NCBI RefSeq assembly: GCF_947497935.1
Contig: NZ_CANMIO010000017.1
Location: forward strand, 14,561-78,560
Direction: 5' to 3'
Source of the DNA: an uncultured Shewanella sp.
GTDB taxonomy: Bacteria; Pseudomonadota; Gammaproteobacteria; Enterobacterales; Shewanellaceae
DNA: 64,000 nucleotides
The position numbers and the translations under genes are program-made. The notes below the pieces were generated by a model. The model searched no databases and was not told the origin of the DNA. It saw nothing but the letters and a program-made list of their open reading frames with translations. Shown here one piece after another: positions 14,266-64,000 of this stretch; position 1 is the first letter of the stretch; every line of letters starts with the position of its first letter.

Positions 14266-14864
14266 GGTATATTCTCTTTAATAAGTAATCTACTGAGCCA
14301 TACTCGATAAGCCACTGTAAAATGACCATCGCACGACTCGCATTTCAAAGATATATTATAATCAATATTTTGAATATCAGCTAGGTTCAAACCGCCGACC
14401 TGTGAACACGCCTCCCTTTGCCTCGAGCCAGACATGATCAAGTTATCATTTTCACCTCAAAAAGTTCGGTTTACGCCCGTAAACGAGTCATAAGTGCCAC
14501 TGACCTCTCAATTTCCACCCGCTATTAACGGCCTATTTAATCGTAAACAGCGTACTCTAGGCTCTAGGATCATCGTTCTAAGCTGAGAGCTCAAGACTCT
14601 ACAACCTTCCTTATAATAGTCGTTAGCAAAGGCCTATTCGAGTTGTACCTATATCGACTCCATATGCGCTGCAACAAACGAGAACAGCGGCTATTTGCTT
14701 GCACTTCCAAGCTTAACGCCGTGCAGGGTTCAGTATAGACAATTGGACTTCGACAAAGGAGCATTAGATATTAAGAATTGAGAATTGGGTGTGAGTGCTG
14801 AGTTTTCATTGTCGAGGTTTGTTGTAACGAGCTAATCTAGTGAGCTTAGTAGGAAGTCAGCCAC

Positions 14865-18569: not shown

Positions 18570-20096
18570 TTATACCGCTTTAAGTAAATATGATTCAAGC
18601 TCTCTAACAGGTAATGCCTTCGAATAAAGCCAGCCCTGCTGCAGATTAACGCCAAGTACTTTTAAAATATCAGCCTGAGCCAAGGTTTCCACTCCTTCGG
18701 CAATAACACTAATATTTAATTCTTTAGCAATCGCAATATATGACTCAATTAGAGACAGTTTGCTTTCGGGGGTTCCTAAGTGACCAACGAATTGCTGATC
18801 GATTTTCAGATAATCAAAATCCAAATTCTGCAAACATAGACTACCACTATAGCCAGTCCCTACATCATCTAATTTGACCTTACATCCTAGTGCTTGGCAT
18901 GCTTGAATAAAGTCTTCAAGTTGCTGCCAGTTATTCATAGGCATCCGTTCAGTCAACTCAAAACTCAAGTATTCTACCGGATAGCCCTCTTGCACTAACT
19001 CCTGTAAAAACGGCAACATCTGGCCCTGTTCGATTTCAGCTGCGCTGACATTGATACTGCACCAGCCTATAAGCTTGCCATCTAATTGCTCTTTAAGTTC
19101 ACTCAAGGCAGTTTTAACCACCCAACGAGTGACCTCGGACATAATAGGGTCGTTCTCAAGGATCCCGATAAACTCTCCGGTATTGCGAGTGGTGCCATCG
19201 GGCTTCGACCACCTTAATAACACCTCAACACCAAAGATAGTGAGTTTGTCAGTATCAAAAATAGGTTGATAGGCGAGATAAAACTCCCTTCGACTCAATG
19301 CTGCAACAAATAGACGATGCCAGTAATATTGAGTGACTATCCCCCTAAGAAAATACCAACCGCTAATAAACACACTAAAGAGTACAACGGTGGCTAAAAA
19401 ATACGTACTCCATAACAAAGCCTTGGCATAATAACTGACAAAAAAACGGTATTTCAGCCCGGTTCTTTCAGAGGTGAACTCTAAAGTCCCCCAATTTAAA
19501 TCGTGCTGGTTAACTCTAAAAAGTTCATTGTTATCATCAAGCTGGATACTGATGCCACCACAAACCAAACAATGTTCTAGCACATTTTGTATATTAGGTA
19601 ACACATCAATACCAATAAACCAACGATATTGGTCTGTGTATCGTCCAACATAAATGAGCTTCTTCGCATTCAGATTACGACCCGCTTCCATTTGATAGAT
19701 GTGCATTCCATTTTCCAAGGAATCTATCACGCGATAATATTGTGGTCTTGGTAACGGAGAAGCGCCTAATGCGGAGCAAATAAGCTCTTTATCGTTAAAC
19801 TGCACCCAAACAATCGCTTGCCCTTCTGAAGTTAAGATATACTCCTTAAGCGTATCCACCACCTCTATTGAGCAACTATTTGCTTCTACTTTTTGTAGGC
19901 GCTTATTGACCGCCATTAAACTGCGATTCGCGGCTTCTAGATTTTTTTGATAATAGTTATCAAATTCAGCGACTCTGGCCTCTAATCTTATATAAATATC
20001 GCACTGGGTCAGAATATAAGAGCTGACTCCACACAGCATAAACAAGGCAAAAATAAGCCAAGAGACATGTCGTTGGTTTAAGAATTGGCTAAGCAT
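18570..20096 (-). CDS. Membrane-bound c-di-GMP phosphodiesterase (CSS-like periplasmic domain plus EAL)
   Basis: Two TM segments, periplasmic SCS and LICS cysteines; YQPI, EVLLRW, ELTE, DDVGTGYS, KID, EGVET. Confidence 0.9.
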   Translation of the reverse strand: MLSQFLNQRHVSWLIFALFMLCGVSSYILTQCDIYIRLEARVAEFDNYYQKNLEAANRSLMAVNKRLQKVEANSCSIEVVDTLKEYILTSEGQAIVWVQFNDKELICSALGASPLPRPQYYRVIDSLENGMHIYQMEAGRNLNAKKLIYVGRYTDQYRWFIGIDVLPNIQNVLEHCLVCGGISIQLDDNNELFRVNQHDLNWGTLEFTSERTGLKYRFFVSYYAKALLWSTYFLATVVLFSVFISGWYFLRGIVTQYYWHRLFVAALSRREFYLAYQPIFDTDKLTIFGVEVLLRWSKPDGTTRNTGEFIGILENDPIMSEVTRWVVKTALSELKEQLDGKLIGWCSINVSAAEIEQGQMLPFLQELVQEGYPVEYLSFELTERMPMNNWQQLEDFIQACQALGCKVKLDDVGTGYSGSLCLQNLDFDYLKIDQQFVGHLGTPESKLSLIESYIAIAKELNISVIAEGVETLAQADILKVLGVNLQQGWLYSKALPVRELESYLLKAV

Positions 20097-21494: not shown

Positions 21495-22508
21495 TTGAGG
21501 AGTCATGCTTTGACCTTCTTATCGAATTCGCAAACGCTGAGCAGATTAAGCTTAGCGAGCCTACTTATCTGTGCTCCCTTTTCCTCCTATGCCGATCAAT
21601 GGCACTTAAGTTTTGATAACGATGTGGTGATTGGCCAAGATGGCGATTACTCCAATGGTTTCGTTTTTGGTTGGCAAGCTCTTCCTCAAGCTGATTTTAC
21701 CCAAGCTCCTTGGCCATTTAGCTGGCAACAGAAATTACAATTCTCAAGCCAGAGTAAGACGGTGCAATGGGGAGCCAAGATCTACCAAAGAATGTGGACC
21801 CCGAGTGAAATTGAATATGATTACCCCCAGCCAAATGATCGTCCCTATGCGGGCCTACTCGAACTAGAAAGCTTTACCGGCAGTTATAATGAAACTTTCG
21901 CACAAAAAAACTGGTTTAGCATTGGCGTTATTGGCCCTGCATCTGGTGCGCAAACCATGCAGGAGTGGGTTCATAGGATCACCCCGTCGACTCTTCCTCA
22001 AGGTTGGCAATATCAAGTCGAGAATCAACTCACTCTGCAACTGGCTTACGAAGCAGATGTACTGGCATTACGTCGAGATGCGACAGATGATAGCCAATGG
22101 GAACTCAGTGGCTATAGCCATAGCATGCTGGGTAATTTCCGCTCTGAGGCAAATCTAGGTTTTACATTGCGCTGGGGAGATGACTTAGCCGAGTCATTTG
22201 GTCAACTCAGTAGTCATGCAGGTCATTATGGTCAATTCAGTGCTACAGCACGCACTGATGGAAGTTGGACTGTATATGCTCGGGCGCAAGCAGGGTATCG
22301 CTTTAACGATCTCAGCATCGACGGTGATGTGCCCTACGACTCTTATGTGCAAATGAAACATCAACAAGCCAGAGCCAGCACAGGCGTGATTTGGGCGTTT
22401 CCCACTTGGTCTGTCAGTTGGAGTTTTGAGGTTTACACTCCTGAGTATGAACCGGATCCAAACCGATGGCATGGTTATGGTGTGCTGAGTTACAGCTTTG
22501 TGCTATAA
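21495..22508 (+). CDS. LpxR/DUF2219 family outer-membrane beta-barrel (lipid A deacylase-like)
   Basis: Signal peptide; FDND...DGDYSNG; QRMWTP; DRPYAG; GVIGPAS. Confidence 0.85.
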   Translation: MRSHALTFLSNSQTLSRLSLASLLICAPFSSYADQWHLSFDNDVVIGQDGDYSNGFVFGWQALPQADFTQAPWPFSWQQKLQFSSQSKTVQWGAKIYQRMWTPSEIEYDYPQPNDRPYAGLLELESFTGSYNETFAQKNWFSIGVIGPASGAQTMQEWVHRITPSTLPQGWQYQVENQLTLQLAYEADVLALRRDATDDSQWELSGYSHSMLGNFRSEANLGFTLRWGDDLAESFGQLSSHAGHYGQFSATARTDGSWTVYARAQAGYRFNDLSIDGDVPYDSYVQMKHQQARASTGVIWAFPTWSVSWSFEVYTPEYEPDPNRWHGYGVLSYSFVL

Positions 22509-22513
22509 CAAAA

Positions 22514-22554
22514 ATAGAAGATAGAAGATAGAAGATAGAAGATAGAAGATAGAA
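22514..22554. repeat. Heptamer tandem repeat (ATAGAAG, about 5.9 copies) between convergent genes
   Basis: Directly visible. Confidence 0.95.
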
Positions 22555-22615
22555 TAACAATGTGAGATAAGAGATAAGCTCAAATATGTAAACTTATCTC
22601 AGGATCGCACAAGGC

Positions 22616-23437
22616 TCAAAAACTAAAGGCCCAACCTAGCTGTGGGCCTTTTTCAATGAAGTCCATCTCATACTGCACGCCATCGACCTCACTGTCGTTA
22701 CCTATCTGCAAATAACGATAACCAACCCAAACATTATGTAGATCCCCGAAACGGTATAACGCCGCAGCATTAAAGCCGTAATCCCTGTCGTTATCACCAT
22801 AGATTTTAGTGTCGGCGCCTACCGAAAGCCCCCAAGACTCAGTGAGCCAGTAGCGGTAGGTCACCCCCACTAACCAGTCAAAAAGGTGTTCATCGGCAAT
22901 GGGGACTTGTGCATTAATGTTAATAAGTCCATCGTCGCTCAGAGGCTTAATATTCAGATCGATTTTGCTAAACACATGGCGTACGCCGGTAAACAATCGA
23001 AAACCCGGCGTCACTTCATAGCCTGCTAGAAAGTCATTAACGGCTAAGTGCATGTCGGTTTCAATATTATGTCCAGGTGAGATAATACCGCCAGTGATAG
23101 GCCCCTTAAGACCCTCTGTTTGGCTATCGCTTTTAACTCTTAAATAGTTAACCCTAAGGCTATAGAGCCAATCTCCTTTTTGTGCGTAAAGCTCCCCAAT
23201 CACACCGAAGTTAAGGTTATCAATGATACTTTTGAAAGGGACATCGATATCGACTCTGTCTGCATCGGCAGCAATAGAGCCTGAAATATCAGGTGCCCAA
23301 ACCATGGGAAAGGCAATTAAATAGTTCCACCCATCATTGCTCTCGTCATAAGAGTCGGGGCCAATCTCGTACTCTTCATTGGCAAAGGCTGCAGAATGGA
23401 TGGCCAACATAAGTAATACAGTAATAGGTATCTTCAC
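22616..23437 (-). CDS. Putative outer-membrane beta-barrel protein
   Basis: GTG start at 23437 after AAGGGAG; signal peptide; alternating beta-strand pattern; C-terminal Phe (WAFSF). Confidence 0.75.
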   Translation of the reverse strand: MKIPITVLLMLAIHSAAFANEEYEIGPDSYDESNDGWNYLIAFPMVWAPDISGSIAADADRVDIDVPFKSIIDNLNFGVIGELYAQKGDWLYSLRVNYLRVKSDSQTEGLKGPITGGIISPGHNIETDMHLAVNDFLAGYEVTPGFRLFTGVRHVFSKIDLNIKPLSDDGLININAQVPIADEHLFDWLVGVTYRYWLTESWGLSVGADTKIYGDNDRDYGFNAAALYRFGDLHNVWVGYRYLQIGNDSEVDGVQYEMDFIEKGPQLGWAFSF

Positions 23438-23471
23438 CAACAATACTCCCTTAACCATAAGCGCCAAAATG

Positions 23472-25681
23472 CTATTCCACCCAACGCAGCACATCCTTTA
23501 TTACCGACCAGCGGGGCTCTTGAGGCTTGGCATTCTCACCTAAAATCCAATAGCCGTAGAGTTTGTCTACATAACCTGATGACTTTTGCAGTTCCAGCCA
23601 GCTATTTAAAAAGGTTTGCAACGAGGCATTGTCAAGAGCCACCGCGTAAGACGCAGGAAAGGACTTAATCTCTTTACGATTATAAAGTGTGGTGTACTCT
23701 GGATATAAGATGGTCCAGGTTTTACCCGCTTCGAGACTTATCATAAGCCCATCCCAAGTCTTGCCGCCATCTTCAAAAAACAATCGGTCTGACTCAATGG
23801 TCTCAAACTCGATATTGGGAAACTTCTCCTCTAACTTGGGGATAATAGAATAACGCCCTACTGTGGCAATTCTGATCTGGTCGGCCTCTCGGATTAACTT
23901 GTCGGTTTTGAATTCATCAACCCGATGATCTTTCACCACAAATGCATAGTGCAAGTCGAGCACTGGAGTAGTAAAACCCACCAGCTCGATTCGCTTGGTT
24001 GTCATCTGCAAACCCGATATGGCAATATCAAACTGCCCTTGATTGATCCCCTCTAATACATTGGTAAAGGTATAAGGTACAAATGCGATTTTAAGCTCTA
24101 GTTCTAACGCTAATTTTTTCATTAGCTCAACATCGAACCCAACAAGCTGATGCTCTGCATTATAAAAAGAGAAAGGGACTTGAGTCGGATTATACCCCAC
24201 TCTTAGCACACCACTTTCTCTAATCTGTTGCATGTTGCGAGGCCCATCCGCTTCGGCTAAGTCAGCCCAGTTATAAGCAGTGACTTGATCAGGCACTTTC
24301 TCTGCCGCACTCATCTGCGCGACGACTTCATCCATCTCATACTCTGTATTGACGATAGAGCTTAATAACCAGCTCGTTGCCAGTAAACTCACACCAAACA
24401 CCACAGGGGTGAGTAGGCTAACTATGGCTAATCGCTTCATACTCACCTTAGCAATACCGACCAACATGGCTGTGCCACCAATAGCCAAGATAAAGATATT
24501 CATCGCGGCAAGCAGGGAAGTAAAACGACTGGTGAACAGACTCGAAACCATATACAACTGAAAGAGATCGGAAGAAAGCTCGAGCGAATCAAGCAGCATA
24601 GGAATAGTCAAATAAACACTACCAAACAGGCTCACTAAACCATTTAGTGACATAGGCAAGTAAGTTAAAAAATCCAGTTCCTTACCTGAAAACCAAGCGG
24701 CAAATAACACAAAGACTATGGTGAGTAATTTGCCAAGATTTGGGAAGCTGAACACCACAGGAATAATGATGTTGGCATAGTCATCACTTTGCTGACTGCC
24801 GATATTGTATTTATGAAATAACTCTTTAGTGCGCTCAATTAGAATAGGAATTACGATAAAAATATTACCCGCGGCAAAGGCTGTGATCATCGCATCTTTT
24901 GCAATTCCCGTGATATCTCGATAGGAGAAAGGAGTGATCACCACTAAAATAGCCGGTAATATCCAGTAAGTCAGAATGATGGTCATCACCACATGGGCAA
25001 CAAAATAGACCTGTAGCTTTTGGAACTCATCAAAGTCCATTGTCCCTGCGGTGGCTGCCGTCATCGCAAAGATACCAATAGGCATTAATTTAACGATGCT
25101 TTGTGTCACCTTATTAAACGACTCTCCAAGCAGCTGCATCGGCTTCATAAGCGAGTCTTTGTTATCGATAGAGATCAGTGCAATACCCGTGGCCACACAA
25201 AACAGCACAATCGCAGGGATATAGCTGTTCGATAATGAAAAGAATGGGTTGGACGGAATATAGATATCGAGCAAGTTCACCGAATTAGGATCTTCTAGGG
25301 CAGTTAAGCTAAAAAACTCCCCCGCCTGCCAATCAGGAAAGGTGTATTTAATAAAGTACATACTCAGCAAACCAAGCGCCCAGATCACCAGCATTAGTTT
25401 ACCGACCTTCACCCCCAAAGATTTAGCCTGTTCCATAGTCAGGCTACCAAGGCTCGAGACCAAGGACACTATGATGTAGGGAATAATGGTCATCTGTAGC
25501 AGTTTAATAAATGCATCGCCGATGATAGACATCCACGCCAACATCTCACCAAAAAATAACCCTGCAATAATGCCTGCCGCAAACGACAATAAAACCAGAG
25601 TCGACATGCTCATCTTCTGTTTGGGTTTTTCTTGCTCATTGTGGTTAGCTTCTGGCTCTATGGTATCCGTTTTACTGCTCA
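23472..25681 (-). CDS. Dicarboxylate/amino acid:cation symporter (DAACS) fused to a periplasmic SBP family-3 domain
   Basis: GDAFIKLLQM, PIGIFA N-terminal DAACS pattern; C-terminal GVLRVGY..PFSF...GFDVEL binding domain; likely ATG at 25681. Confidence 0.88.
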
Positions 25682-26856
25682 TTACTGTCTCCGTGTAAAG
25701 CCTGCTGTGATGAAGAGTTACCTTGGCAATCATTTATTGCTTCAAGGTAGCAGGCTAGGTATTGCTCAATTTTAGCCTCTGGATTAAAAAGCTTAGCAGC
25801 CCGCAGCCTACCTGCATGTCCCATCTGCTTTTGCCGCTCCGGCTCAAACAAAATCTGCTCCATGGCCTTAGCCATTGCAATCGCATCATCGGGGTCGAAC
25901 ATAAACCCGGTCTGTCCATCATCTACAACCTCAGGGATCCCATCGACATTACTACTCACCGTCGGAATACCGCAGGCCATCGCTTCAAGCAGTACCATGC
26001 TAAAAGATTCACGATAGCTAGGTTGGATCATGCAATCTGCATTTGGCAGGTAGTGCTCAACATGAGTCACATCCCCCATAAAAGTGACATGTTTTAAAAT
26101 TCCCAGCTTTTCACATTGTTGCTTAATACTATCAATATCAGGCCCGCTGCCGAGCAAGACTAGTCGAGCCTTGACCTTTCGCTGCAACAAGTGAAAGGAG
26201 CGGATCACCGTATCACTGTTCTTTAACGGCCTAAAATTTGATACATGCATAACGATTTTCTCGTCATCTTTCGCCATTTTGCGACGAACGTTAATATCGG
26301 CTAAATCAGGTGAGAAAACGGCTAAATCAATGAAGTTATGGATCACGTCTATCGGCTTTGTCTCATCAAAATGGCTATAGATGTAGTTGCGCTGAAAGTC
26401 CGACACAGTCGTTACTCTGGTGCTTTTATGAATACTGAAGCGATTGAGAGGGTAAAGCGGTTTATCTTGGCCAACGATGGTGACATCAGTGCCATGAATC
26501 GTGGTTACTGTTGGAAATTTATGGGTGGTAATTTCGCCAGCGAGATAGGCACATAGAGAATGGGGGATCGAGTAGTGAGCATGTACAACATCGAGCTTAA
26601 ATTGCTCTACGACTTCAATAATTTTAGCCGTTAATGCAAAGGTATATAGCGGATCAGAAAATAGTGGATAATTAATTGCTTCTACCGAGTGAAAAAATAA
26701 CCTGTCGGAGTCTTCTATTAATTTAAAAGGGCGTACACTCGATATAAAGTGCACTTCATGACCAAGCTTAGCAAGCCCAAGCCCTAATTCTGTTGCCACC
26801 AGCCCTGAACCACCAATACTGGGGTGGCACACTATCCCTATGCGCATCTTCGACAT
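25672..26856 (-). CDS. bshA: BshA-like GT4 glycosyltransferase (GlcNAc-malate synthase family)
   Basis: IGIVCHPSIGGSGLVATELG, HAHYSIPH, TTIHGTD, HVSNFRPLK, ESFSMVLLEAMACG. Confidence 0.8.
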   Translation of the reverse strand: MSKMRIGIVCHPSIGGSGLVATELGLGLAKLGHEVHFISSVRPFKLIEDSDRLFFHSVEAINYPLFSDPLYTFALTAKIIEVVEQFKLDVVHAHYSIPHSLCAYLAGEITTHKFPTVTTIHGTDVTIVGQDKPLYPLNRFSIHKSTRVTTVSDFQRNYIYSHFDETKPIDVIHNFIDLAVFSPDLADINVRRKMAKDDEKIVMHVSNFRPLKNSDTVIRSFHLLQRKVKARLVLLGSGPDIDSIKQQCEKLGILKHVTFMGDVTHVEHYLPNADCMIQPSYRESFSMVLLEAMACGIPTVSSNVDGIPEVVDDGQTGFMFDPDDAIAMAKAMEQILFEPERQKQMGHAGRLRAAKLFNPEAKIEQYLACYLEAINDCQGNSSSQQALHGDSNEQ

Positions 26857-27073
26857 AAATTCCTTACCATCATAAAACAGTTAAAAGAATGTTACAGCTT
26901 AAGAAAACTTAGCACCCTTAATCACTTAAGCCAAGTTAATCATTAATACACTCAGTAAGTTGGCAATATGCACTCGATCTTGTGGTCCTTATTGATTTGC
27001 AAAATGCAAAAGCCCACCTTCAGCCTATCTAGATAAACGAATTAACTAACTGAATAAACAATATAAATTCTAA

Positions 27074-27130: not shown

Positions 27131-29287
27131 ATGAAAATAGCCAAGCCAATTCCATTAATCTGCTCCCCGTTAATTCTCAGTGTATTGATTTCTATCAACG
27201 TCAGTGCATCGGACCCTTTTAGTGCATGTCCTACAGAAGCCTTTGTCATCCAAAAACAATCTAATACTCCAAAAAGCTACGGCGTTAACTTGGCTACGGG
27301 TAGCTATGTGGTTTTATCGGAAGATATGGGAACTGGAAACGGCTATAACGGCGTAGGTTTTAACTACCATGATAATTATCTCTACGGTTGGGATTACGCC
27401 AGTGCCTCACTCGGACGCACCGGTAATGACTATCAAATAACGGCACTGAGTGTCAGTAAAGATGCAGCTTCGGCTTCAGCAGGTAACTTCTTTGTGGGTG
27501 ATATCGCCATCAATGACAATGTTTGGTATGGCTATAGAAAAGGCAAGGGGCTATTTAAAATTCCGCTGGATGATCCCGACAGCTACAGCATGACACTGGT
27601 ACCAGGTAGCAGCAGCTTTGCCACCTACAATATCACCGACTTCGCCTTTCATCCCAGCGATGGCTACCTGTACAGTATCAGTAATGGCGCTTCTGGGGAT
27701 CTCTTACGAATCAACCCCGCCACGGGGGAAGCATTAAATCTAGGTACCGTCATTACATCAACTTCCGGCAACTTTACCTTCGGTGCACAGTTCTTCGACC
27801 CCGATGGTAATCTCTATGTCAGTAACAACAGTAATGGCTATATCTACAAACTCAATGTAAACGCCTCCTCACCTAGCCCCGTTTTATTCGCCTATGGCCC
27901 GGCCTCTTCGAGTAATGATGGCGCCCGCTGCGCGCTAGCCGAAGTCGTGCTCGGAGATGATGTCGACTTCGGTGATGCCCCCGACAGCTACGGCACCCTC
28001 CTAGCCTCTAACGGCGCGAGACACACAATGAGTGATGACTTGTATCTAGGTGCCAGCGTTGATAATGAGTCCAACGGTTATCCATCACCATTGAGTGATG
28101 ACAGTAGCGATAATTCCGATGATGAAGATGGTGTATCTATGCCGACGGGATTTGAGTTAGGAGAAAGCGCAATTTTACTGGTTACCGCTAAAGGAAGTGA
28201 AGGTTACCTAAATGCTTGGTTCGACTGGGACAGAGACGGCAGTTTTAGCGCCGACGAACAGGCTATTGTGGGTGAAAGTCTCGTTGATGGTCAAAATAGC
28301 ATTAGTATTGATGTGCCTAGCTGGGCTAGAGCGGGCTCAACATGGGCACGTTTTCGCCTCAGTACTCAGCAAGTCATTAACCCGACGGGGGGCGTCGGTG
28401 ATGGAGAGGTCGAAGATTATGCCGTAACCCTAACGGAAACTGGCGTAACCATTAATTACTATCCCTCCTCTTCCACTTACACGACTCTCGCCTTTGAAGA
28501 TCTCTACCCAGATCAAGGTGACTTTGATATGAATGATGTAGTGATTCAATTGCGTCTTATCGAATATGTCAAAAATAACCAGGTCAGACGTATCGGCTTT
28601 GAGGCGCAATTAGCCGCTATGGGCGCCGCTTACCATAATGGCTTTGCCATTCACTTACCCGGTGTCGACCGCAGCAAGATAAAAGAGTCTGTTATCAGCT
28701 GGTCAATTGATGGCGTAGCTCAAACAGACTCCCCCCTAGAAACCGGGCAATCTAATGCCGTCTTAGTCTTCACCCAAGACTTAAAGCAGTACGTGACACT
28801 CGAGCAAGGTTGTCTATACCTTAGAACCGAGACAGGCTGTGATACAGCCTATCGAACCTCTTGGTCATTTGAGATCCCGTTTGAAAGCCCTGTGGATGAG
28901 AACCTCGTTCCCCCATTCCCCTATGACCCATTTATTTTCGCCACACCGAATACTGATCATGGCTTAGCTGCTAAAAATGTAGTCGGTGAAAATCCAGGTC
29001 GACAGTTAGAGATCCACCTTAAGAACCAGACTCCAACCGATAAGTTCTCAACTAATTATTTTGGTGCTCGAGATGATGCCTCGGATCCAAGCGCCCAGCA
29101 ATACTTCCAAGATGAAAACGGCATGGCCTGGGCTATCGAGATCCCTGTTACTTGGAAACACCCAAAAGAGAATGAACGCCTAGATGATGTCTACACAGAT
29201 TTCGTCGATTTTGCTGCCGATCCCACAGGAAACACCAAGCCAACATGGTACGAAAATGCCAATGAATCATTGATTTTTAGCCATTAA
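27131..29287 (+). CDS. Secreted LruC/DUF4842-domain protein with GEVED domain and N-terminal repeat (propeller-like) region
   Basis: Signal peptide; DFGDAPDSYGT; GEVEDY; TLAFEDLYP..GDFDMND; YDPFIF; EIHL. Confidence 0.85.
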   Translation: MKIAKPIPLICSPLILSVLISINVSASDPFSACPTEAFVIQKQSNTPKSYGVNLATGSYVVLSEDMGTGNGYNGVGFNYHDNYLYGWDYASASLGRTGNDYQITALSVSKDAASASAGNFFVGDIAINDNVWYGYRKGKGLFKIPLDDPDSYSMTLVPGSSSFATYNITDFAFHPSDGYLYSISNGASGDLLRINPATGEALNLGTVITSTSGNFTFGAQFFDPDGNLYVSNNSNGYIYKLNVNASSPSPVLFAYGPASSSNDGARCALAEVVLGDDVDFGDAPDSYGTLLASNGARHTMSDDLYLGASVDNESNGYPSPLSDDSSDNSDDEDGVSMPTGFELGESAILLVTAKGSEGYLNAWFDWDRDGSFSADEQAIVGESLVDGQNSISIDVPSWARAGSTWARFRLSTQQVINPTGGVGDGEVEDYAVTLTETGVTINYYPSSSTYTTLAFEDLYPDQGDFDMNDVVIQLRLIEYVKNNQVRRIGFEAQLAAMGAAYHNGFAIHLPGVDRSKIKESVISWSIDGVAQTDSPLETGQSNAVLVFTQDLKQYVTLEQGCLYLRTETGCDTAYRTSWSFEIPFESPVDENLVPPFPYDPFIFATPNTDHGLAAKNVVGENPGRQLEIHLKNQTPTDKFSTNYFGARDDASDPSAQQYFQDENGMAWAIEIPVTWKHPKENERLDDVYTDFVDFAADPTGNTKPTWYENANESLIFSH

Positions 29288-29826
29288 TGGAGAGCGTTAT
29301 GAAAAATCAAAATGAGAAATCCATTAACAATCACTTAGTCCTATTATTCATTATGGCGGCATTCGTTAGCGCCTGTGGTGGCGGTGGCGATGATGCACCA
29401 GACACTCCGGCTGCTATAGAAACAGCTACAAACACAACATCGACTGATACTACAACGACAACGGATGATCCAACTCCTGACCCCGCTCCAGAGCCAACGT
29501 CATTGGACGATCTAGTGGTCGATGCCGATAACAAGCTTGAGTCAGCGTATATGCTAACCATTAATGTGGATAGGAACAGTACTCAGAGGGGGTACTTCTC
29601 ACTGTGTGATGACTACCAAGCACAAGGTGACGGTTACTCGGTAAACTTCGATTCTTGCCTATTTAGGGGGCCGTTAACTCAAGGCAAGCTCAGTAAAGAG
29701 GTCAAAGTCGCCAATCATGAGAGTCAACTGATTGCGGTTATTTGGTTTTATAAAGGCCAAGCGCCACAATTTCTGGAGTGGCGATATTTGCAAGATGCGG
29801 ATCCACAAGTACTCACTATGAATTAA
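29287..29826 (+). CDS. Hypothetical lipoprotein with Thr/Pro-rich linker
   Basis: Lipobox VSAC, GGGG, T-rich linker; coupled to the LruC gene; likely start at 29299. Confidence 0.8.
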   Translation: MESVMKNQNEKSINNHLVLLFIMAAFVSACGGGGDDAPDTPAAIETATNTTSTDTTTTTDDPTPDPAPEPTSLDDLVVDADNKLESAYMLTINVDRNSTQRGYFSLCDDYQAQGDGYSVNFDSCLFRGPLTQGKLSKEVKVANHESQLIAVIWFYKGQAPQFLEWRYLQDADPQVLTMN

Positions 29827-46160: not shown

Positions 46161-48089
46161 ATGACAGCTTATTTCATTCAAGCTTTTATCTATTTATGCG
46201 CCGCAGTCATCGCTGTGCCCATCGCTAAACGTCTCGGTCTGGGCTCAGTGCTGGGCTACTTGATGGCAGGCGTTGTGATAGGACCCATTATTGGCCTTGT
46301 CGGCGCTGAAACCAATACACTGCAGCATTTTGCCGAATTTGGTGTAGTCATGATGCTATTCCTAGTCGGACTTGAACTTGAGCCTCGAATGCTATGGAAT
46401 ATGCGTAATAAACTTATCGGCTTAGGCGGGCTTCAGGTCGGACTATCTACCTTGGTAGTGATGGGTATCGCCCTGAGTTTCGGCTATGGCTGGACCGTCG
46501 CCCTTACGGTGGGGATGATTTTCTCTCTATCCTCAACCGCTATCGTACTGCAGACCTTCAATGAGAAGAGTCTAACCAAAACCGAAGGCGGCAAAAACGC
46601 CTTTTCGGTGCTGTTATTCCAAGATATCGCCGTGATCCCTATGCTGGCGTTTATTCCGCTCTTAGCCTTGCCTGAACTGGTCGAAAAAGCACAATCAGTC
46701 ACTCAAAGTGCAGCCGAGCACCATGAGGAGCTTTCATTAGTCGCAGGCCTGCCAGGCTGGGCATACGGTATTGTCGTGCTACTGGCCATCGCCAGTGTTG
46801 TGGTAGGCGGACACTATTTAAGTCGGCCACTTTTTCGCTACGTTGCCAGTTCTGGGCTTAGAGAGATCTTTACCGCCACCGCGCTTATGCTCGTTATCGG
46901 TATTGCCGCGCTTATGAGCCTCGTCGGCCTGTCTCCGGCGCTGGGTACTTTCCTTGCCGGCGTTGTTTTAGCAAACAGTGAATTTAGACACGAGCTTGAG
47001 TCCAATATTGAGCCTTTCAAGGGCTTATTGCTCGGGCTATTTTTTATTACCGTTGGCGCAGGGATCAACTTCGATGTGCTGATCAGTAATATCGGCCCCG
47101 TGATGGCGATGACTGCTGGGGTGATCTTGATTAAGGCCTTAGTATTACTGGTACTGGCCTTTATTTTTAAGATCAGAGGCAGTGACCGCTGGCTGTTTGC
47201 TCTTAGCCTAGCGCAAGCTGGTGAATTTGGTTTTGTGCTCTTAAGTTACACAGTACAAAACCACGTTATTCCTACCGAGCTGGCGCAGCTACTCTCGCTA
47301 GTCGTCGCTATATCCATGTTCCTCACACCAGGTCTGTTCATCCTGTTTGATAAAGTCATATTGCCGCGCTATGAAAAAACAGAAAATACACGTGAGCCTG
47401 ACGATATCGATGAGACTGGCACTGTGATTATCGCCGGCGTCGGCCGTTTTGGTCAGATAGTTAATCGCCTGCTGGTGACTAATGGCGTTAAGACTGTGGT
47501 ATTGGACCATGAGGTTCAGCAAATCGAAAACTTGCGTAAAATCAATACCAAAAGCTATTACGGCGATGCCACTCAGCCAGATCTACTCCATACTGCCGGT
47601 ATCGAACAGGCTAAGATGCTTGTTATTGCCATTGATGACCCAGATCGAGCCGTTGGTTTAGTCGAATACATCAAGCATAGCCACCCCCATGTGATTGTGA
47701 TGGCTCGTGCCTTTGATCGACGTCATCTCTATCGTCTTCGTAATGCTGGAGCTGACTTTATGGTCAGCGAGACTTTCCATTCAGCCCTCAATTTAGGTAA
47801 GCACGCCCTGATAAGACTTGGCGTACACCCGTTTAAGGCTGAGCAACAACGTGCAACTTTCTATGAGACCGAAACGACTCATAAAGATACTCTGTATGAG
47901 GCTTGGAAGCAGTTCACCGAAGACGATAAATATCTAGTTCATTACCGCGATATGTTTATTCAGCTTGAAGAGACCCTTAGCGAGGCGATGAAGGACGAGC
48001 GTTATCGCAGCTTTTCGAAAGTAGAGCGCAGTTGGACGCCTCCTCCTAAGGAGAATCATACCGAGTTTTCTAAAGCGGAAAGCGATTAA
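46161..48089 (+). CDS. KefB/KefC-like CPA2 potassium efflux antiporter
   Basis: LGSVLGYL, AEFGVV, LSSTAIV, FRHELE, QAGEFGFV, GVGRFGQ KTN domain. Confidence 0.93.
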   Translation: MTAYFIQAFIYLCAAVIAVPIAKRLGLGSVLGYLMAGVVIGPIIGLVGAETNTLQHFAEFGVVMMLFLVGLELEPRMLWNMRNKLIGLGGLQVGLSTLVVMGIALSFGYGWTVALTVGMIFSLSSTAIVLQTFNEKSLTKTEGGKNAFSVLLFQDIAVIPMLAFIPLLALPELVEKAQSVTQSAAEHHEELSLVAGLPGWAYGIVVLLAIASVVVGGHYLSRPLFRYVASSGLREIFTATALMLVIGIAALMSLVGLSPALGTFLAGVVLANSEFRHELESNIEPFKGLLLGLFFITVGAGINFDVLISNIGPVMAMTAGVILIKALVLLVLAFIFKIRGSDRWLFALSLAQAGEFGFVLLSYTVQNHVIPTELAQLLSLVVAISMFLTPGLFILFDKVILPRYEKTENTREPDDIDETGTVIIAGVGRFGQIVNRLLVTNGVKTVVLDHEVQQIENLRKINTKSYYGDATQPDLLHTAGIEQAKMLVIAIDDPDRAVGLVEYIKHSHPHVIVMARAFDRRHLYRLRNAGADFMVSETFHSALNLGKHALIRLGVHPFKAEQQRATFYETETTHKDTLYEAWKQFTEDDKYLVHYRDMFIQLEETLSEAMKDERYRSFSKVERSWTPPPKENHTEFSKAESD

Positions 48090-63368: not shown

Positions 63369-64000
63369 CTAAACCTTAAAGTAATCGACTAAAAACTGAT
63401 CGAAGCTTACGCTTGGTTGCGACTCTAGATATACCTGCTTTTCTAGCGAGTCGACAGCATCTTGCTGATATCGTTTGTCTATACTCTCAGTTAGCGGGTA
63501 AGCTTTCAACTGTTGGTGATACTGCTCGGCAAGCTCCATGACCCACTGACTATGATCGATTTGTTCATCCTTCAGCCCAGCCATGATTTTACCCGACAGA
63601 GTTTCACTTGGATTCTCGACCGCTTTATGCCACTTAGCAAGTGCGACTTGGTAATCGTCTTGACCTTCATCGTCTATCAATTCGGCAATCTGCTTTAAAT
63701 TACCAAATAGCGACTCTAGCCAATGGGTTAAACTTAACTCTTCACCAGAACGCTTTAGCAACAGGCCTGGTTTACGCCCCTCTAAAACAACTGCCTGCAA
63801 GTTTTCAGCAATTTCAGCCTCTTCACTTGCATCCGACGGAGCCGATGGCTGCAGTAAGCAGTTCAATAAGAAGAGATCTAAGAAGCGGATCTGCGACTTT
63901 TCGATGCCGACGGCGCTGTAAGGGTTAACGTCTAACGCTCTAACTTCAATATATTCAACCCCAGCACGTGCTAGAGACTCAGATGGCTTCTCATTGCCCT
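63369..64000 (-). CDS. gshA: Glutamate-cysteine ligase, C-terminal part (runs off the window edge)
   Basis: GVEYIEVRALDVNPYSAVGI..QIRFLDLFLL; VVLEGRKPGL. Confidence 0.93.
   Translation of the reverse strand, partial: GNEKPSESLARAGVEYIEVRALDVNPYSAVGIEKSQIRFLDLFLLNCLLQPSAPSDASEEAEIAENLQAVVLEGRKPGLLLKRSGEELSLTHWLESLFGNLKQIAELIDDEGQDDYQVALAKWHKAVENPSETLSGKIMAGLKDEQIDHSQWVMELAEQYHQQLKAYPLTESIDKRYQQDAVDSLEKQVYLESQPSVSFDQFLVDYFKV

Follow-up and report, generated by a model that had tools for sequence, protein, structure and literature searches.

What does an enzyme of the bacillithiol pathway do in a Shewanella that carries gshA, and why does its gene lie beside that of a fusion transporter? The question is raised by a contig of an uncultured Shewanella sp. 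(NZ_CANMIO010000017.1, positions 14,561 to 78,560), which we analyzed as one stretch of 64,000 nucleotides, hereafter the window; coordinates are those of the window unless a contig or locus is named. Three minus-strand genes follow one another here in one direction, encoding a GT4-family glycosyltransferase, a fusion of a DAACS carrier with a solute-binding domain, and an outer-membrane barrel. Bacillithiol is made by BshA, BshB, and BshC, and N-methyl-bacillithiol needs NmbA (PMC5790435, PMC6282198). Our analysis confirms the positions first reported for the three genes and indicates that the glycosyltransferase is a BshA-type enzyme with no known bacillithiol pathway behind it, and that its gene and that of the transporter form a conserved pair. 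The features at the center of this argument are as follows.

25672..26856, minus strand: BshA-type GT4 glycosyltransferase, predicted UDP-N-acetylglucosamine (UDP-GlcNAc):L-malate N-acetylglucosaminyltransferase, 394 amino acids (ATG at 26856, TAA at 25674-25672)
23472..25682, minus strand: DAACS (SDF) + SBP_bac_3 fusion transporter, 736 amino acids (ATG at 25682, GGAG six nucleotides upstream, TAG at 23474-23472)
25672..25682, minus strand: overlap of glycosyltransferase stop and transporter start, ATGAGCAGTAA, 11 nucleotides, read directly from the sequence

By all available sequence tests, the glycosyltransferase is a genuine BshA-type enzyme. It scores 431.1 bits against TIGR03999, the NCBIfam equivalog model for BshA (cut-off 273.7), with residues 4-374 aligned to model positions 1-374, and its two Pfam domains, Glyco_transf_4 and Glycos_transf_1, make up the GT-B fold of the BshA family. 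The BshA of Bacillus anthracis (2JJM/3MBO) aligns with it over the full length and without gaps, at 39% identity (E 4e-88). The initial annotation had described the family motifs as intact, and this holds: 102 of the 104 positions with a conservation of 93% or more among 46 other BshAs are kept, and CHPSIGGSG (with the GGSG loop), HYSIPH, HGTD, SNFRPLK, and the E-x7-E motif (ESFSMVLLE, residues 283-291) are all present. In several genomes of Shewanella, Ferrimonas, and Thalassotalea, PGAP already assigns the name BshA to these proteins. The closest relatives outside Gammaproteobacteria, about 54-55% identical, sit in operons with PIG-L/bshB or bshC; at two such loci (L052, L053) the bshA relative lies directly 3' of a PIG-L/bshB gene, and at a third (L055) directly 3' of bshC, with a methyltransferase gene ahead of the latter. 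In a maximum-likelihood tree, the transporter-linked BshAs form a single clade (support 99/96) nested among canonical BshAs, from which they differ by clean residue switches at only three positions; the noteworthy one is residue 11, which directly precedes the GGSG substrate loop and is His instead of Tyr in the linked clade. Judged by this likeness, the enzyme most likely joins UDP-GlcNAc and L-malate to give GlcNAc-alpha-L-malate.

The remainder of the pathway is missing from the window, as the initial annotation had noted of bshB and bshC, and equally from the genome at large, whose completeness is rated at 100% and which was searched in six frames. BshC gave no TIGR03998 match anywhere in the genome and its core reached only 15.7 bits with PF10079, below the cut-off, while the search for BshB1 and PIG-L proteins returned no match to TIGR04001 or PF02585. 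Only one cysS is present, and there is therefore no MshC-like ligase. With neither BshB or PIG-L nor BshC, bacillithiol synthesis by the known route is excluded. The gshA gene that had been reported is indeed there (63384-64892, minus strand, in window numbering; TIGR01434, 596 bits for the whole gene), but it crosses the window end at 64000 and only its 3' part (63384-64000) lies inside. A KefC-like gene for glutathione-gated K+ efflux is also found in the window, at 46161-48089. The reading of the enzyme as a BshA orphaned from its pathway in a glutathione-capable gammaproteobacterium is supported.

The same absence is seen in relatives. In an even draw of 401 genomes of the same GTDB order, BshA scores above the cut-off in 14; BshC occurs in none of the 13 others, and 12 of these 13 lack any PIG-L protein. 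A sample of 401 genomes across the phylum yielded BshA only in this genome and in one relative (G123), which carries the same module. No known enzyme, then, carries the product of the glycosyltransferase on to bacillithiol, and on the most economical reading GlcNAc-malate or a derivative of it would be the end product.

What, then, binds this gene to the transporter? The glycosyltransferase gene lies immediately 5' of the transporter gene, on the same strand, in 19 of the 20 loci retrieved with the transporter. These 19 belong to Shewanella, Ferrimonas, Psychromonas, and Thalassotalea; beyond the pair, their surroundings are unrelated, and no further neighbor is conserved across genera in the loci compared. 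The order of glycosyltransferase and then transporter also holds in metagenomic relatives that branch basally in the BshA clade. The arrangement is found again in a clade from another family of the order (f23), where a BshA-like gene (about 30% identical to that of the window) precedes a transporter of SDF+SBP_bac_3 composition (about 38% identical). In the transporter tree, the type found in the window makes up clade A, and the BshA-linked f23 copies fall in clade B, sister to a stand-alone Shewanella paralogue. Of the 401 genomes sampled from the order, the 14 with BshA each have two or more members of the fusion family, and the 17 carriers without BshA have one each. Since only one of the 20 loci departs from this order, which also recurs in a distant second clade, the linkage is far beyond chance, and the link between BshA and a DAACS-SBP fusion suggested by the initial annotation proves to be deeply conserved. 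The conserved unit is the glycosyltransferase-transporter pair, whose linkage has either evolved repeatedly or been kept since ancient times; it is a self-contained two-gene module spread among marine Gammaproteobacteria. Distant members of the fusion family (L050, L051) are not BshA-linked. At L051, from Thermodesulfobacteriota, the gene of 383 amino acids lying 5' of the family member is not a GT4 glycosyltransferase.

The junction between the two genes varies among loci. The overlap of 11 nucleotides in the window rests on the choice of start codon, as an internal ATG (MSMST, at about 25622) would give a gap of 49 nucleotides; the deposited S. pealeana orthologue of the transporter is likewise 736 amino acids long, and the S. 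pealeana orthologues of the window proteins are 92-96% identical, which places the Shewanella of the window near S. pealeana. Overlaps of 8-11 nucleotides occur in L001-L005 and of about 1-4 nucleotides, taking the nearest start, in L017, L018, and L047, and the remaining loci have gaps of 2-103 nucleotides. Translational coupling by overlap, as initially claimed, is therefore consistent with the window but applies to only part of the clade. A terminator scan found none between the three genes; its single terminator-like match lies inside the transporter gene (24594-24578).

The architecture of the transporter is the second element of the answer, and its parts are these.

24459..25604, minus strand: divergent DAACS membrane core, residues 27-408 (Foldseek: 9bgz, TMt 0.82; GltPh 6v8g, TMt 0.70)
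24354..24440, minus strand: extra ninth transmembrane helix, residues 415-443 (AlphaFold2 helix following transmembrane helix 8, residues 373-408)
23544..24233, minus strand: class-3 solute-binding domain, residues 484-713 (AncCDT-1, 5T0W: phmmer E 1e-25; Foldseek TMt 0.89, rmsd 2.3)
23475..23516, minus strand: C-terminal motif PRWSV(I/L)(K/R)(D/N)VL..W (family-invariant; AlphaFold2 confidence low here)

Pfam assigns residues 27-390 to SDF (157 bits, cut-off 27.9) and residues 493-713 to SBP_bac_3 (92 bits). The AlphaFold2 model (pLDDT 74) has a GltPh-like core, a ninth helix, a disordered acidic linker, and a two-lobed binding domain; the structures matched by the core are an ancestral aspartate transporter (9bgz) and GltPh (6v8g). 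The core departs from GltPh in the motifs of the substrate and Na+ sites. Helical hairpin 1 (HP1) reads AFAAGNIF (GNIF) where GltPh reads RSSS/SSS, transmembrane helix 7 (TM7) has FPNLGK (PNLGK) in place of NMDGT, and TM8 retains only a conserved basic residue and an Asn, spaced differently from the canonical D-x3-R-T-x2-N, so that none of the canonical substrate and Na+ motifs (HP1 SSS, TM7 NMDGT, TM8) is present at the aligned positions. With HP1 SSS and NMDGT lost, the family name is no guide to the substrate or the coupling ion. None of the NCBIfam equivalog models comes near its cut-off; the best score, 38 bits, is for GltP, whose cut-off is 638.

In DAACS carriers, the N- and C-termini both lie in the cytoplasm. 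The ninth helix, preceded by a basic KVSMKR loop and followed by the acidic linker, should put the C-terminal binding domain in the periplasm, a placement that follows by analogy from the cytoplasmic DAACS termini and from the KVSMKR loop. Within that domain, an Arg (in ..QMTTKR..) at the position of Arg77, the residue that binds the alpha-carboxylate in HisJ/LAO-type proteins, is kept in nearly all members of the window's clade. A further pocket Arg (in VGRY) was considered as a mark of a dicarboxylate site and rejected, since the position is Asp in most close homologues. At the extreme C-terminus, R724, W725, and S726 are invariant in 30 members of the fusion family, down to 37% identity. 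The family is large: of the 8,000 candidates scored, 2,236 clusters reach E 1e-10 or better. It extends to Alphaproteobacteria and Thermodesulfobacteriota. On its predicted structure, we would describe the fusion as an elevator-type DAACS carrier with a tethered periplasmic class-3 domain, that is, a binding-protein-dependent secondary importer, the direction being inferred. Our literature searches found neither SDF+SBP_bac_3 fusions nor an orphan BshA with a transporter described, and the pair of an orphan BshA and a DAACS-SBP fusion appears to be undescribed.

How might the two proteins work together? We favor, tentatively and with less than even confidence, a reading in which the acceptor, L-malate or a near analogue, is imported and then glycosylated to GlcNAc-malate as a terminal product. 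The tethered domain would capture a carboxylate ligand in the periplasm, our best guess being L-malate or a close C4 hydroxy-dicarboxylate; the remodeled carrier would bring this ligand into the cell, and the co-expressed BshA would glycosylate it. This order of import and then glycosylation is suggested because, to our knowledge, all characterized binding-protein-dependent systems import, and because the known DAACS substrates are small acids, namely small amino acids and C4-dicarboxylates. A small acid ligand is also supported by ApbA/PanE-type 2-ketoacid reductase genes that abut a paralogous transporter in two Shewanella (L059:5005-5991, L074:8006-9031). We infer the identities of acceptor and ligand, the direction of transport, and the role of the product, which is possibly an anionic solute.

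Several observations weigh against this reading. Its main weakness is that malate, as a tricarboxylic acid cycle intermediate, is plentiful in cells, so a dedicated importer is not obviously needed. The loss of the canonical motifs makes the analogy of the DAACS core with DctA and GltP weak. In the binding domain, the Arg77 equivalent is missing from the distant f23 clade, and the position aligned with the Asp that binds the alpha-ammonium group in HisJ/LAO-type proteins is Ser, with an invariant Glu two residues on. The Tyr-to-His change ahead of the GGSG loop could alter the acceptor used by the glycosyltransferase. Finally, the sole exception among the 20 loci, in a metagenome-assembled genome (MAG) of Hahellaceae, has the same transporter type and no BshA. 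The initial annotation had read the locus as making a GlcNAc-acid product that may not be bacillithiol; the orphan BshA and the conserved link to the transporter both sustain that reading, its third gene does not belong to the conserved unit, and an end product other than bacillithiol stands as the most economical reading.

That third gene, and a candidate promoter at the other end of the operon, are the following.

22616..23437, minus strand: outer-membrane beta-barrel, 273 amino acids (GTG at 23437, AAGGGAG upstream, TGA at 22616)
26939..26966, minus strand: sigma-70-like promoter candidate 5' of the glycosyltransferase gene, TTGCCA-16-AATGAT (consensus scan; a weak pattern match)

The barrel gene starts 34 nucleotides after the transporter gene, in line with the roughly 35 bp first reported, and encodes a cleavable signal peptide (..SAAFA/NEEYE) and a C-terminal Phe. 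Its AlphaFold2 model (pLDDT 80) has about 14 strands with only generic Foldseek matches (TM at most 0.55), and Pfam gives a weak match to Phenol_MetA_deg (E 5e-4, below the cut-off). Compared with FadL/TodX, OmpW, KdgM/NanC, and MipA, it has no specific family match by Pfam (below cut-off) or by Foldseek, and the candidates of an acidic-sugar porin or a MipA protein were dropped. At a distant locus, L044, a MipA gene lies about 700 bp downstream, probably by coincidence. The barrel follows the pair in only 7 of the 19 paired loci (L001-5, L014, L020), all in the S. pealeana/S. waksmanii group, and its homologues in Colwellia piezophila, Thalassotalea agarivorans, and a Pseudomonadales MAG stand in unrelated contexts; in T. 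agarivorans the pair lies elsewhere in the genome. These contexts do not support the trio first proposed. The barrel gene is an unrelated, lineage-specific neighbor outside the conserved module, which may be co-transcribed with it here.

Around the operon, an LpxR-family outer-membrane lipid A deacylase gene (21495-22508, plus strand, Pfam 250 bits) converges on the barrel gene. The spacer between the two holds a perfect 7-bp tandem repeat, ATAGAAG, in 5.9 copies (22514-22554), and beside it, just after the barrel stop codon, an inverted repeat with an 8-bp stem (22571-22600). As for the promoter candidate at the other end, the region has fewer such sites than shuffled sequence. Divergent from the operon lie a gene for an LruC-domain protein (718 amino acids, TIGR04456, 278 bits) and an overlapping open reading frame of 179 amino acids (together 27131-29826, plus strand); the LruC-domain gene is syntenic with the operon in most Shewanella loci and not in other genera. 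A gene for an EAL protein is found 2.5 kb from the operon, at 18570-20096.

The genome contains a second SDF+SBP_bac_3 fusion on another contig (C15:65797-67944, plus strand), 38% identical to that of the window and with a LysR-type regulator gene directly upstream. Orthologues of this paralogue are found in many Shewanella without BshA, and in three Shewanella species the paralogue is followed by BshA and then by the clade-A transporter. At one locus (L056, G262:C1:4298441-4300651), the paralogous transporter gene upstream of BshA has one in-frame TAA, which may mark a pseudogene or an alignment artefact. In Thalassotalea agarivorans, a gene for PanP, a PLP-dependent aspartate 1-decarboxylase (926 bits), abuts the pair (L047:4780-6405); we did not use this as a functional clue, as it is confined to that lineage. 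The bsh genes of B. subtilis likewise neighbor pan genes (PMC5790435). The adjacency of pan-type genes to the module or to the paralogue may be coincidence. Genes for cyclic di-GMP enzymes (GGDEF-EAL, CHASE4-PAS-GGDEF-EAL, and dCache-GGDEF proteins) adjoin second fusion copies in another family of the order (L061:7781-10000, L062:7788-10484, L063:7418-9385), and such neighbors may hint at a sensory role of the fusion family. In the genus g24 (L046:8621-12475; L048), a divergent "BshA," the third kind found here, scores 355 bits and has about 31% identity to that of the window; it adjoins serA-like and serC-like genes and lies 2-8 kb from a fusion transporter without being adjacent to it. Both the f23 and the g24 proteins pass the TIGR03999 cut-off and yet differ at about half of the conserved positions, so the model appears permissive.

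This permissiveness bears on the simplest alternative, that the glycosyltransferase is an envelope-glycan or generic enzyme over-called by the BshA model, with no functional link to the ordinary nutrient transporter next to it. This alternative gains some weight from the divergent f23 and g24 matches and from the g24 copies beside serA- and serC-like genes. We nevertheless consider it the least probable of the readings: the enzyme of the window retains all but two of the 104 conserved positions, the two genes stay side by side across genera even though the flanks have been replaced completely, BshA and the extra transporter copy co-occur without exception (14 of 14), and the neighborhood holds no other genes for glycan synthesis. 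Hardly more probable is a cryptic thiol pathway, in which a non-homologous deacetylase and cysteine-adding enzymes encoded elsewhere would yield bacillithiol or a new thiol, and the transporter might import cysteine or cystine. It would agree with the fact that BshA is known only as an enzyme of thiol pathways, with the weak similarity of the binding domain to cystine- and cysteine-binding proteins, and with the presence of cystine carriers (TcyP) in the DAACS family. What counts against it is the complete genome, with no PIG-L, BshC, or BshC core and a single cysS, together with gshA and the want of any third gene that travels with the pair across genera.

The remaining alternatives take GlcNAc-malate itself to be the transported molecule. 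If the DAACS-derived carrier released it, with the tethered domain, and here the barrel, passing it outward, for example as a chelator or envelope component, a biosynthetic gene translationally coupled to a membrane carrier would make sense, as would the barrel gene that directly follows in the window's subclade, and the loss of the Na+-site motif NMDGT could mean a different coupling. We regard such export as very unlikely, because binding proteins impose an inward direction in all studied systems that we know of, the barrel is not conserved with the pair, and the fusion family is widespread without BshA. Unlikely, but a more serious competitor, is that the GlcNAc-malate made by BshA serves as an (osmo)protectant inside the cell or is secreted, and that the transporter takes the glycoside, or a relative of it, back. 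Synthesis with salvage is known compatible-solute logic: TeaABC retakes ectoine, and GgtABCD retakes glucosylglycerol. A dedicated extra copy of the transporter beside the gene in every BshA-positive genome, despite the existence of general dicarboxylate carriers, would be explained in this way, and two different BshA-like clades have each recruited a copy of their own. Binding of sugar-acid conjugates by class-3 proteins is also known (the fold matches include SocA with deoxyfructosyl-glutamine), and the heavily remodeled HP1/HP2 region could enlarge the pocket. On the other hand, GlcNAc-malate (337 Da) is far bigger than the DAACS substrates known so far, the pair has no linked gene for a hydrolase or for catabolism, and the 17 of 31 family-positive genomes without BshA, like the Hahellaceae MAG, would have to be scavengers. 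Import of a small acid followed by its glycosylation therefore remains the reading we prefer.

A bolder synthesis, which we think improbable as a whole, would make GlcNAc-malate or a close derivative an unrecognized end product of marine Gammaproteobacteria, for example a protective anionic solute or an exchanged public good, and the DAACS-SBP fusions a fourth, undescribed class of binding-protein-dependent secondary transporter whose BshA-linked members carry the malyl glycoside. If true, a malyl glycoside would be a substrate far outside the known DAACS range. For annotation, the consequence is more immediate: current practice, automatic annotation included, takes BshA to mark bacillithiol synthesis, and for an entire group of marine bacteria that inference does not hold. 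The repeated occurrence of BshA without its pathway implies a biological role of its own for GlcNAc-malate.

Set against known systems, the locus combines familiar parts in a different way. Like other BshAs, the window enzyme is a GT4 protein of GT-B type with conserved family motifs and E-x7-E (39% identical to BshA of B. anthracis), but its gene shares an operon with a transporter and its host is a gammaproteobacterium that bears gshA and lacks BshB and BshC. The first committed step of bacillithiol biosynthesis is apparently identical, whereas steps two and three are absent, so that the route halts at, or departs from, GlcNAc-malate. Compatible-solute operons such as BetT-BetIBA, TeaABC, and GgtABCD offer a parallel, since in them the synthesis of a small organic solute and a transporter are regulated together; this is an analogy only, as there is no homology and the window system shows no sign of osmotic regulation. 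In ABC permease fusions (GlnPQ, OpuA), a class-3 domain is likewise covalently tethered to a translocator, and GlnPQ domains are among the sequence matches of the binding domain, but the translocator of the window is a secondary carrier without an ATPase. With the DAACS/SDF carriers (GltPh, GltTk, DctA, GltP; TC 2.A.23, PF00375), the fusion shares an SDF match well above the gathering score and a predicted GltPh-like fold; it differs in the added ninth helix and C-terminal binding domain and in the replaced HP1 and TM7 motifs. According to a paper from 2025, the families that depend on binding proteins are ABC, TRAP, and TTT, to which it adds TAXI-GltS as a proposed new class (PMC12344293). 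As in TRAP, TTT, and TAXI-GltS systems, of which fused forms exist, a periplasmic binding protein would here serve an elevator-type secondary carrier; the membrane part of the fusion is DAACS rather than DctQM, TctA(B), or GltS, and its binding domain is of class 3 rather than DctP, TAXI, or TctC, so that the fusion would work like these systems without being a member of them. The DAACS fold, too, has thus recruited a periplasmic binding domain, which extends the theme of binding proteins serving elevator-type carriers.

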